The position numbers and the translations under genes are program-made. The notes beneath the pieces were generated by a model, which was not told where the DNA came from, did no database searches, and saw only the letters and a program-made list of their open reading frames with translations. Of a stretch of 64,000 bases of DNA, positions 35,573 to 38,918 are shown in pieces. How positions within the stretch are numbered: the first letter of the stretch is position 1; the number at the start of each line of letters is the position of its first letter. Source of the stretch: an uncultured candidate division Zixibacteria bacterium (GTDB lineage Bacteria; Zixibacteria; MSB-5A5; RBG-16-43-9). The DNA is taken from contig OY970208.1 of assembly GCA_963713865.1 (NCBI GenBank), forward strand, positions 96,001 through 160,000, read 5' to 3'.

Positions 35573-35884
35573 TTAAATCGGTCGCTCCTTCTTTATCATC
35601 CTTGATTCTTACAACCCTTTTACGGGTAACGAATTAAATTTTAGTTAAGGAATATATATCCTCCTTTAGTATAACTTTTAAACGATAATTTTTAGGAAAA
35701 CATTGAACAATTTTCAGGTTGTAATAGAAAAATTTTCCTCTATCCTTAAACTCCCAAAAGGATTAAAAGGATTGAACTTGTTTTAAACAGATACATGAGA
35801 AAGAGCTTAAATGTTTGATAAATCAGGTAAATTATCCTGCTCAAGGCAGATGTTATTATCCGCCCTATATTTACTGCTGGATGA

Positions 35885-36012
35885 TAACATCCAGCGTCAG
35901 CCGTCGCCTGGCTCTGGCAAGACTCCTACCAAAAAAAAGAGCGCATGTTGCATAAAGGCGTGCGCATACCCGCACCGCAAGGCGGTCAGCTGCACACCGG
36001 GGTTAGGTGCAC
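35885..36012 (-). other. Integron attC recombination site
   Basis: Minus strand GTGCACCTAAC-CCCGGTGT-G-CAGCTG-A-CCGCC ... GGCGA-CGGCTG-ACGCTGGAT-GTTA: R'' RYYYAAC, paired L boxes with unpaired bases, and R' GTT. Confidence 0.8.
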
Positions 36013-37067
36013 CTGCCACTCACCAATCTGACTTTCATCGCAACATAACTCAACTGATATATCGCAACCATGCAAAATTAAGATGTATCCAGAAATCTAG
36101 GTGAGCTGTATTACCAGTGATGACGCGGCAATGATGCTGCATGTACCGAGATGTAACATGAACGCTTTTTTTCGCACATCAATCATCCGGTCCGAGCACG
36201 AGTACTCGGTCCAGGATACGGCCACGATCTTCCACGCCAGTCCGCCTAAAAGCAGCGTGATTAGTGTCAGGGGGATTATTGATGCTGAGAATACAGCAAG
36301 GAGTAACGTCGCGAAAAATAGCAGCGAGAGTGCGAGAACACCATAGCGGCCAGAGAAGTGCGGGCCAAAATCAATAACTATCGTCTTGCGCCCTGCTTTT
36401 TCATCATCTACTCTACTAACGAGTTCATCTATCCAAACCCACAAGCCGGTCGCGACAACTATCGGTAGCGAAGCCAGATACACCGTACGTGTGAGGTCAC
36501 CGACCTGGACAAGGTATGCTCCAAGAACAGGAATCATGCCAAGGCTTTCAGAGATGACGATCTCGCCGCCAACTCGCCGACAGAAATTGAACGGCGGTGC
36601 GACGTAGAGCACACCCACGAATAGCACAGTAAGCCCGTAAACAATGAAGATGCTCCTGGGAACACCGTTTGTGTAGAATCAGACCGTTGTTTAGGTGCAG
36701 ACCCAGGAAGCACGCCACAACAATGCACATACCTGCGTACCTTAGGAGCCGGGATTTAGGCCACTTGGTTGTGGACCTTTTTTCAAATCATGCCTGCAGG
36801 AACGAGAATCCGGCGTGGAATAAAATAGTTGCGAAAAGAAACTCAATGGTACCAAGCCACCTGAACGAGAAACCCGGTGGGCGGAGCCAGAATGGCAGCG
36901 TCGTGCCCACGAGCGCCGGAAGCAGGGAAGCAGTCCAGTAGCGGAATCCAGCGAAGTGGAGAAATCCAGAGATACCTTCAAAGGGTTCTCCTGCCGGAAG
37001 GTTGTCTTGCGCTATTTGGGTCATGTCCCTAACTCTCCTTTTTACCTAAGAATTCTTGTGCACCTAA
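35888..37067 (-). mobile_element. Solitary integron gene cassette
   Basis: Begins G|TTAGGTGCAC (37068), the exact complement of its own R'' GTGCACCTAAC. Carries a single gene with a short leader, ends in an attC, and is visibly more GC-rich than its flanks. Confidence 0.78.
36097..37024 (-). pseudogene. UbiA/MenA-like prenyltransferase-family membrane protein, interrupted
   Basis: R.WTASLLP.LVG, LY..PPF...R..GE and D..D...G.KT motifs. In-frame TGA at 36788-36790 plus a 1-bp frameshift near 36668. Confidence 0.7.
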
Positions 37068-37089
37068 CATCCAGCATGAGCAAAAAAGA

Positions 37090-37452
37090 TTATTTCCCAA
37101 TCAGTAAAACACCTATCAGAATCAACCCCATCCCAACCCATTTATATAAAGTAAAAGGCTCTTTAAAAACCTGCCAGGAGAAAAGGGCTATGAGAACATA
37201 TCCGGTGCTCATCATCAGGGGATAGGCAAAGGAAAGATAAGTCCGGGATAACACGACCAAATAAAAAGCCACGCTTGCCACATAGGAGGAAATCCCTAGA
37301 AGCACGAAAGGGGTGGTGAAAAAAACCTTTTTAAAATCGGAGATGAGCAAAAGCGGATTTATCACTCCAATTTTATTCATCCCCGCTTTAAGGAAAATAT
37401 GCCCGCACACGTTTAAAAGGATAGCTAAAAATATTATCACCCATTGAAGCAT
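37090..37452 (-). CDS. SMR/EamA-like small transporter (ArnE/ArnF-like)
   Basis: Four TM helices; LS.AYP and F.E....KW.G..LI..GV motifs. Confidence 0.8.
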   Translation of the reverse strand: MLQWVIIFLAILLNVCGHIFLKAGMNKIGVINPLLLISDFKKVFFTTPFVLLGISSYVASVAFYLVVLSRTYLSFAYPLMMSTGYVLIALFSWQVFKEPFTLYKWVGMGLILIGVLLIGK

Positions 37453-37458
37453 CGTATT

Positions 37459-38918
37459 TTACCTCCGGTTAATTTTTTTCTTCACTCCAAAAGTTGATAT
37501 CGCCCAGTTAACTAAACCCCAAGTCTCCCTGCCTAAGGGAAGCCGGTTGATAAAAGTATACCCGACTTTCTCGATCATCTCCCGGGCAGGTCTGCTTTTA
37601 GGCTCAAAAATCTTCCTCAAAAATAAAAGCCCGAAAATCCTTCCCAACCCAGATAAAACGAAAAGTATATGAAAATTAACAAAGTTCTGACCTTTGAAGA
37701 AAAATCCAAATCCACTTAAAGATTGAGCAATTACCCCTCCTAAAGCCGAAGCTGCAAACAAAACCAATCCATTGATTGCAGCAATCGAAGCTAAATAATA
37801 AACCCTTCCTTTTTGTGGAGATAAAGCTAATACCACATTGAAAGAAGCCAGGGTAAATCCGGACCAGAAAATTCCTCCCATAATCGCATCAATCCATAAA
37901 GGAAATATATTCCGGGGAGTTACAAAAAGCCATAAGAAAGGGATAAAGAAAATAAAAAATATATTGAAAATCAAAACCGGTTTGTTGCCATATTTATCAA
38001 TTGCCTTCCCCCATAAAGGCTGCATAAAAAGACTAATGACCCCGGCTACGATGGAGAATAAAGATATCAGGTAGAAATCCAGATGCAGATTTTTCAGCAT
38101 ATGCGGAGTCCAGAAAGGGGCGGATATTCCGGTAACAAAAGACCAGTAGATAAAAAAATAGATTAAGCTTCTGAAATTTTTATCCGCCAGCGGGATTTTC
38201 AGAGTCGAAATTAAGCTTACTTCTTTATGAGGAATCATCTTGGGTTCAGGCTGTCGGTTTAGAAAAAATGCTGCTGTCCAGGCGGATAAAACTGCTAAAA
38301 GGAAAACAAACGAGAGACCAGAACCGGTTGGATTTTCTTTGATGTGCTCGTAAATGAAGTCCGGCATATAAAAAGCTATGCCAGAGCCATCCGCTTTAAA
38401 ATAATCTATGAGCTTAGCTCCGGCAAAATTCGCCCCCATAGTGATGAATCCCAGGACCGTATTTCTAAAACCGAAATATCTTCCCCTTCCCTCTTCCGGA
38501 ACCAGATCCGACATCCATGAAAGCCAGGCAACTGCTACCAAATTAGCAATGGCGGAGGATAAGGATAAAAATAGCAGAAACATTACTATCTTGATATGAT
38601 GGCTTTGAGGTAAAAATGGTAACAAAACAAAGATCAAAAAGATCGACCGGAATAAAAGCGAACCAAGTAGATTGAACTTTTTTCTCCGTTTTAATTTTTC
38701 AACCACCAGAGCACCGGGAAGTTGAAAAGCCTGAGCTAAAAAGGGAAAAGCTGCTACCAGCCCTAACTGAAAATCGTTTGCTCCCAGGAAAAGCGCATAC
38801 CCGACTAAAAAAGGGCCTGTGGTCAGAGCAATGAATATAGCCGCAAAAGAGCCCTCGTAAATCGAATCCTTAGCCCCTTCTCTGTTTGCTTCTTATCTAA
38901 CTCAGCCTGAGCACTCAT
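37459..38918 (-). CDS. MFS transporter (1-bp deletion near 38865)
   Basis: ATG at 38918 gives MSAQAELDKKQTEKGLRI, then the frame shifts to IYEGSFAA...GYALFLGA. W.SWMSDLVP..RGRYFG.R and WGKAIDKYG motifs. Confidence 0.85.

Follow-up and report, generated by a model that had tools for sequence, protein, structure and literature searches.

How does a single integron cassette come to lie inside a palindromic repeat of a bacterial chromosome, with no integrase beside it? The question is raised by a 1180 bp unit carrying a prenyltransferase gene in a 64 kb window, the whole stretch of DNA analysed here (G000:C1:96001-160000). G000, the genome of an uncultured bacterium, is one contig of 2.72 Mb with 40.4% G+C. 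A preliminary description of the window had proposed a lone cassette integrated into a hairpin resembling a repetitive extragenic palindrome (REP), and had suggested that such hairpins are landing pads which disperse cassettes through the chromosome. We find that the unit is a genuine solitary integron-type cassette, and that its flanks join exactly into one copy of a dispersed double-hairpin repeat, found uninterrupted at the same spot in relatives. It was probably inserted there by an integron integrase acting on a secondary site. The suggestion of landing pads fared less well.

Coordinates are positions in the window. G001 is a congeneric genome, G002 onwards are related genomes, L numbers designate fetched loci or contigs, and X numbers public metagenome runs. 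An arrow in G↓TT marks the crossover point. The parts of the cassette are the following:

35888..37067, minus strand: integron-type gene cassette, 1180 bp, about 50% G+C, G↓TT at both edges
36097..37024, minus strand: UbiA-superfamily prenyltransferase gene, broken (Pfam UbiA match on a 176-amino-acid piece)
35888..36012, minus strand: attC site, with R'' at 36012-36002, bulged paired arms and G at 35888 as last base
37058..37067, minus strand: 3' half of R', formed by the first 10 cassette bases, TTAGGTGCAC, complementary to R'' 1.05 kb away
35885..35895 and 37065..37075, no strand assigned: 11-bp direct repeat TAACATCCAGC (plus-strand reading), the identity between attC end and target

The cassette and its attC site

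The unit stands out by its composition, about 50% G+C in surroundings of about 38% (0.47-0.53 over 35850-37050 along the profile, 0.30-0.42 in the flanks). Read on the minus strand, it opens with TTAGGTGCAC right after the host G at 37068, with TT... running from 37067 downward, and its final base is the G at 35888, followed by TT. The R'' box, GTGCACCTAAC, lies at 36012-36002. All positions and motifs by which a GC-richer unit of about 1.18 kb with one gene had first been delimited are present in the window. Its layout is that of a cassette, one reading frame with its own ribosome-binding site and then a 125-nt imperfect palindrome. The host G and the first 10 cassette bases complement R'' at 11 of 11 positions, and excision in silico thus restores a complementary attC core across the circular junction, as had been noted. 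Both boxes of this core agree with the canonical motifs: ACCTAAC (36008-36002) in R'' fits RYYYAAC, and R' across the junction reads GTTAGGT, which fits GTTRRRY.

In this circular form, the attC folds into an 11-bp R stem, an internal loop and a bulged second stem, and none of 300 dinucleotide shuffles of the top strand folds as well (z = -3.46). In its chromosomal form, which is without the 3' half of R', folding equals that of shuffles (z +0.15 and -0.54). Five further attC sites of G000 range from z -2.5 to -4.8. The site had been called well formed; as a structure it is only moderate (z -3.46 and -1.74 for the two strands of the circular form, about 0 in situ). When 14 hand-delimited attC sites were aligned with MAFFT, only their ends, the R boxes, came into register, and a strict fold-based harvest of attC sites yielded 3.

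Comparative data are stronger evidence for the identity of the cassette than its fold. The 308-amino-acid protein encoded by the intact copy (see below) has 494 relatives at E<=0.001, mainly on short contigs; 3 genome and 34 metagenome loci were fetched, and 25 of them were read. The gene is flanked by attC sites in L060/L072/L073, L067, L071, L074/L075 and L076, and the preceding attC ends in ...G↓TTAGG. These array relatives, which come from Anaerolineae genomes and metagenome contigs (L060, L067, L071, L072, L076), share 69-96% amino acid identity. Homology extends beyond the gene: the stretch from stop codon to R'' is conserved between the window cassette and the Anaerolineae contig L060, and near R'' the attC itself is homologous to those of the array cassettes in L060 and L076. 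The cassette start and R'' change together. They are identical to those of the window in L064; a T>C at the start in L076 is matched by A>G in R'', which keeps the 11/11 pairing, and a C>T in L067 and L071 is matched by G>A. Homologs lodged between attC sites in arrays and this covariation of start and R'' mark this as a cassette family that is widespread across phyla.

A second solitary copy (94% amino acid identity) was met at L063 1460-2620, in another repeat-rich intergenic spot of a metagenome contig where no such hairpin is found. At the left junction of this copy the sequence is G↓TC, and the attC breaks off after about 35 nt.

The window cassette was described as carrying one gene. The gene is indeed single, but in G000 it is disrupted, whereas G001 has an intact 308-amino-acid open reading frame at the same site. 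In a pairwise alignment the two cassette genes are 97.2% identical at the DNA level and differ by one 1-nt gap and a W>stop change. The nonsense codon (TGG>TGA, 36788-36790) is a substitution. The gap corresponds to one extra base near 36670. Since contigs from three public runs do without this base, it is specific to the G000 assembly and could even be an assembly error. For this UbiA-type protein, NCBIfam models gave distant MenA-like matches only (22-48 bits, for cut-offs of 225-555). In other copies, a 34-35-bp deletion between two GTTAGG repeats (window 37027-37063) strips the 5' leader and the ribosome-binding site; it is seen in L062 and L086 and in runs X2, X3 and X5.

The cassette was also recovered by a genome-wide scan for lone cassettes, which demanded a 9-base match between cassette start and R'' plus a closed fold. 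The scan is noisy (46 candidates, as against 9 per strand in a shuffled genome), but the cassette at 35888-37067 was its sole candidate within the window, and cassettes at 450 and 524 kb were recovered as well. A scan for attC sites with R' matching R'' in situ is blind to lone cassettes, and its 4 strong folds (0 in the shuffle) include no integron site. Word counts over G000 revealed no genome-wide enrichment of the R-box motif.

The target, a dispersed double-hairpin repeat

On either side of the cassette lie the two parts of one host element, downstream of an operon:

37068..37082, minus strand: host half-site, made of the 5' arm of hairpin 1 (37076-37068) and the outer closing stem (37077-37082), matching the 5' part of the family consensus
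35838..35887, minus strand: rest of the repeat, made of hairpin 1 loop and 3' arm (35887-35875), spacer, hairpin 2 (35864-35845) and outer stem (35843-35838)
37090..38706, minus strand: host operon upstream of the cassette, with an MFS transporter (38706-37459) and an SMR/EamA-like protein (37452-37090)

Joining 35887 to 37068 in silico creates a hairpin with a 9-bp stem and a 4-nt loop (hairpin 1) beside hairpin 2 (35845-35864), both enclosed by an outer inverted repeat of 5-6 bp (35838-35843 and 37077-37082). The palindrome with a sister hairpin inside TGCTCA...TGAGCA that had been reconstructed earlier is thereby recovered. The crossover G↓TT falls in the loop of hairpin 1, at the stem-loop junction.

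The element belongs to a family. From an alignment of seven G000 copies and two from relatives, RNAalifold recovers both hairpins; compensatory changes are seen in 4 of 14 pairs, and extensions of the stems co-vary too. We built a covariance model, R1, from which the window copy was left out and whose training set held 7 of the approximately 8 full G000 copies. R1 scores the window copy at 44.1 bits (E 1.7e-12); it finds about 8 full and about 6 partial copies in G000, and 16-80 matches (both strands counted) in 6 of 8 other genomes of the family, the remaining two being G003 with 2 and G005 with none. In its intact form the repeat has folding z scores of -7.7 and -8.05. Of the G000 copies, 13 were examined; every one is intergenic, and most lie within 40 nt after a stop codon. 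The core GGATGTTATCATCC and that of hairpin 2 are reverse complements, so the element can also fold as one long hairpin.

This repeat resembles REPs and bacterial interspersed mosaic elements in being short, palindromic, dispersed and intergenic, mostly just after a stop codon, and in forming inverted hairpin pairs with compensatory stem changes. It differs from them in that its consensus has no GTAG tag, in that a link to a Y1 transposase of the REP-associated (RAYT) kind is not demonstrated, and in that its stem core, GGATG/CATCC, is conserved in sequence as well as in structure. G000 has 8 Y1-transposase matches; over four genomes, 2 of 25 such matches lie within 1.5 kb of a copy, which is about chance, and none is flanked by copies. 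Rfam holds no family for the repeat or the region, only sub-threshold chance matches. "REP-like" is thus a fair description, not demonstrated membership: the dispersed intergenic palindrome with stems kept by compensatory change is there, the GTAG tag and a cognate RAYT gene are not.

Several smaller observations concern the repeat and its surroundings. Copies often come in pairs 1.5-3 kb apart (G006:C105 10729/13875; G008:C45 1322/2943; G004:C166 23740/26380; G006:C228 28801/31288), and in G006 and G008 a pair brackets a PorV-like gene. Another tiny element uses the loops of the repeat as insertion points: mini-palindromes of about 17-25 nt are nested there in L146, L148, L016 (~4900) and 4 of 4 G013 copies (L160, L163, L164, L165). 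G013 belongs to a second family of the order, and in its variant the nested palindrome is in the first loop. GTAG-tagged hairpin repeats of other families crowd the region downstream of the SMR-like gene in sister genera (L019, L021, L022, L023).

Both the filled and the empty site are preserved. The cassette occupies the same site in G001 and in the metagenome contigs L062 and L086, and runs X1 and X5 have contigs that bridge its left junction. G006 and G008, members of a different genus within the family, lack the gene; in both, the repeat stands intact at the syntenic spot, between the SMR-like and PorV-like genes, and reads CGCTGGATG...CATCCAGCG where G000 reads TGCTGGATG...CATCCAGCA. Such empty sites in relatives had been asked for as a check on the first description, which has thus passed it. 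No repeat copy was found within 260 nt of the gene end in G003, G005 and G007. No contig of four public runs joins 35887 to 37068, which is uninformative on absence, as contigs drop rare variants. Because filled allele and untouched target both survive in related uncultured bacteria, a natural insertion can here be read base for base.

Integrase remnant and other cassette loci in the genome

It had been noted that no integrase lies near the cassette. This is confirmed, yet a 3' remnant of an intI gene exists 622 kb away (753.9 kb versus 132 kb), at G000:C1:753928-754134 (106.7 bits, positions 247-315 of the TIGR02249 model), and the genome has at least three other cassette loci. Just downstream of the remnant is a SnoaL-type cassette with its attC. 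The gene is also present among relatives: matches above the family cut-off occur in 3 of 41 related genomes, G014 has a full-length gene, and G008 and G024 have broken copies.

Cassette arrays are found in G000 at about 450, 524 and 668 kb, all at least 300 kb from the window cassette, the nearest being that at 450 kb. The arrays at 450 and 524 kb start at a shared motif, TATAAACGA..TTCGTCTA (G000:C1:450140 and 523623; L014 ~3140, L013 ~2623), likely an attI-like entry site, twice present in an integrase-less genome. At the 524-kb locus, G000 and G001 have the entry junction in common and different cassettes behind it. The remnant of intI, the arrays, the variable cassettes at 524 kb and the intI genes of relatives together show that the lineage had working integrons not long ago. 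At the window cassette, on the other hand, there is no attI-like motif nearby and no further attC on either side. It has no integrase, other attC or attI close by, and is in this sense a single attC site lacking an integrase (SALIN).

Two of these loci deserve a few details. The integrase-less array at 524 kb (G000:C1:523.6-526.9 kb, L013 2600-5920) consists of a peptidase-like cassette, a two-gene methyltransferase/nuclease cassette and a small Cys-rich open reading frame, while its counterpart on G001:C11 (L058) encodes proteins of 230 and 549 amino acids. The intI fragment and the SnoaL-type cassette lie between two diverged copies of a CcdA-like gene's 3' end (L001 1353-1450 and 2545-2640; ~753.8-755.1 kb), and it looks as if this 1.1-kb piece were inside a duplicated host segment.

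Probable insertion by an integrase at a secondary site, and its alternatives

Solitary cassettes are common in genomes, and the route by which they arise has been shown mainly in E. coli with IntI1. For the window cassette, we consider it probable that an integrase inserted a circular cassette into a secondary site of the attG kind, leaving a SALIN. Precise G↓TT edges, the lack of attI-like sequence and the exact restoration of the host element all fit such an event. In an ancestor of the genus, an integron integrase would have inserted a circle made of the UbiA-type gene and its 125-nt attC, not at attI but at a secondary site of the chromosome, with the crossover at G↓TT in the apical loop of the repeat's first hairpin, 22 nt downstream of the transporter operon. 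The integrase would later have been lost and the cassette stranded, its gene apparently now decaying in this strain. As the cassette has the same orientation as the operon and begins 22 nt after its stop codon, read-through transcription could plausibly express it.

What would have guided an integrase to this site? The attC and the target share 8 bases before G↓TT; the sharing of sequence before TTA, seen from the start, proved to be an 11-bp direct repeat at both ends of the cassette. The word GCTGGATGTT occurs 8 times in G000 among about 80,000 GTT sites. Two of the 8 are the junctions, and the other 6 all lie within long open frames of 158-620 codons. The shared bases are also the start of the bottom-strand segment that is swapped. 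Other attC sites of G000 likewise end in ...TG↓TTAT, and one of them reads GGGATG↓TTAT. For IntI1, identity of the first triplet base is the only strict requirement, as PMC2811028 reports. From the rarity of GCTGGATGTT, its position in the swapped strand and this first-base rule, we infer that extended identity, likeness to the core and harmlessness of the site guided the choice. The site would then have been chosen for its resemblance to the R' side of the lineage's attC (GGATG↓TTAT) and for lying in dispensable DNA, and the hairpins as such were probably not the cue.

The event is one of a known kind. Preprint 10.1101/2022.09.11.507474 describes the formation of SALINs at genomic attG sites, which have a GWT core and a minimal extent of 9+9 bp, are cut centrally and are used double-stranded. 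In the window, the cleaved triplet is GTT, in agreement with GWT, and it is cut within a 22-bp palindrome whose dyad centre lies 2 nt away; the target was presumably double-stranded here too. As in the cases that the preprint reports (10.1101/2022.09.11.507474), there is one cassette with one attC and neither integrase nor attI nearby, the cassette is downstream of host genes and co-oriented with them, and the cut is in the middle of a short, roughly symmetric site. The window differs in its target, the loop of a dispersed double-hairpin repeat that shares 8 further bases with the attC, in having no CRGM motif, in the survival of empty and filled alleles in nature, and in its host, an uncultured lineage with decayed integrons.

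Older parallels are at hand as well. Secondary sites of the class 1 integrase, known since the literature of the 1990s, are core-like GWTMW/GTT sites. There too an attC recombines with a non-att site resembling GTTRRRY, and the cassette is then hard to excise; those sites are on plasmids and used by IntI1, whereas ours is chromosomal and in a repeat. With clusters of attC sites lacking an integrase (CALINs) and decayed sedentary chromosomal integrons, G000 has in common its integrase-less attC clusters and the intI pseudogene fragment, but the window holds a single cassette, away from any attI-like junction and from the clusters. The insertion is thus a known kind of off-site cassette event, a single one, and of the sort that known integron biology ordinarily produces. 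What makes it interesting is the preserved empty site, the repeat element as target and the long unexplained identity, not a new mechanism; a limited literature search found no report of a cassette inside a REP-like element. The locus offers a concrete test of whether secondary sites are chosen by likeness to the core, by identity in the swapped strand or by DNA structure.

Several results weigh against insertion by an integrase. A search with TIGR02249 found no full integron integrase gene in G000. The bottom strand of attC, which is the recombining strand in studied integrons, is the less convincing of the two in the circular form (z = -1.74), and 14 of 300 shuffles fold as well. The 8-base identity is not required by the known mechanism, and its chance occurrence is about 7 in 80,000 sites. 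In run X3, one contig shows a homologous attC whose right-hand neighbour differs and whose stretch before G↓TT is two letters longer, on the strength of which part of the identity may be secondary, arisen via deletions after insertion. The site reads ATCC where IntI1 attG sites have their right-hand motif, CRGM at +6 to +9; this weighs little, as CRGM is specific to the hot spots of IntI1, another integrase. Finally, the cassette coding sequence is 97.2% identical between G000 and G001, against 89.6% for the adjacent host transporter genes, which a simple single ancient insertion does not predict; this contrast hints at later regional exchange between species, or at fast-evolving transporters.

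The first alternative is that the integrase recognised the repeat as a folded single-stranded, attC-like hairpin, its copies being preferred landing pads that scatter cassettes. We regard this as unlikely. The crossover does coincide with the point at which stem and loop of a very stable hairpin meet (z about -8), the long-hairpin fold pairs GTT with AAC and has the outer 5-6 bp stem beyond an internal loop, and repeat copies hold, by our own estimate and not a computed count, some 20-30 of the approximately 80,000 GTT sites. The mini-palindromes nested in the loops of relatives (L146, L148, four G013 copies) indicate moreover that these loops are accessible to something. But in both foldings GTT is 5' of AAC, the reverse of an attC, and the genomic secondary sites described in 10.1101/2022.09.11.507474 are used double-stranded. 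A single event came to light, common to G000, G001, L062 and L086. No cassette is present in any of 20 lower-scoring repeat copies fetched from G004, G006, G007 and G008, of which two, L146 and L148, have the nested mini-palindromes, and a left-junction pattern (outer stem, arm and GGATG, followed by a cassette-like TTA[AGT]G[CT]; blind to other junction shapes) disclosed no further cassette junction in 34 genomes of the order: it had 17 matches, as against 7 in a reversed control, and those that were cassette junctions were in G000 and G001 only.

The search for intI and other cassettes, which had been advised as a check, did turn up the remnant and the loci described above, but none of those examined sits in a hairpin loop. 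The 450- and 524-kb loci start at attI-like junctions and the 754-kb cassette is beside the intI remnant; the entry junction at 668 kb was left out of this comparison. In G000, a degenerate solo hairpin about 220-235 nt past the final recognisable attC of the 524-kb array, with another after the G001 array, might speak for the landing pads. This hairpin, at 526.9 kb, was considered as the end junction of the array, but homology between G000 and G001 resumes at the element's 5' edge and not at its G↓TT. For dispersal of cassettes through host hairpins, as first suggested, no second case was found; as junction scans miss other shapes, the generalisation is unsupported rather than excluded.

A related and rather doubtful idea is that the repeat mimics the R' side of attC (GGATG↓TTAT), perhaps even as a circularly permuted R-box/spacer/L-box arrangement when folded as the long hairpin, and that its copies are preferred secondary att sites for this reason. 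Were it true, a selfish host-wide repeat would give cassettes ready-made docking points, harmless and transcribed, after the ends of genes, and the double-hairpin repeat could be raw material from which attC sites arise.

The cassette could also have entered with no integrase at all, by short-homology recombination, illegitimate or RecA-assisted, within the 11 bp common to cassette circle and chromosome. One crossover anywhere in these 11 bp yields the observed structure with its direct repeats, G000 has no integrase, and of 7 sites with a 10-base match the target alone lies outside a long open frame. We nevertheless hold this to be quite improbable: homologous recombination would have to make do with a very short 11 bp, these bases span precisely the canonical attC crossover point G↓TT, as integrase action predicts, the lineage had active integrons, and the two extra letters of the X3 attC suggest that the identity may not predate the insertion.

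Very improbable is that the cassette is the last survivor of an array or integron that once occupied the site and has otherwise been deleted. The genome does have further decayed integron loci and a fragment of intI, and CALINs are thought, in 10.1101/2022.09.11.507474, to arise partly by integrase loss. However, the flanks join base for base into one repeat copy, which G006 and G008 have uninterrupted at that position, and neither attI-like sequence nor a further attC remains on either side.

A non-integron mobile element, transposon-like, with an 11-bp target duplication and a fortuitous likeness to attC, would account for the direct repeats, and the genome does have Y1-transposase matches, but the unit has neither transposase nor terminal inverted repeats, the pairing of R'' with R' extends over the GTT/AAC triplets and co-varies in homologs, and this reading is brought close to refuted by the presence of the same gene, with a homologous attC, in canonical arrays.

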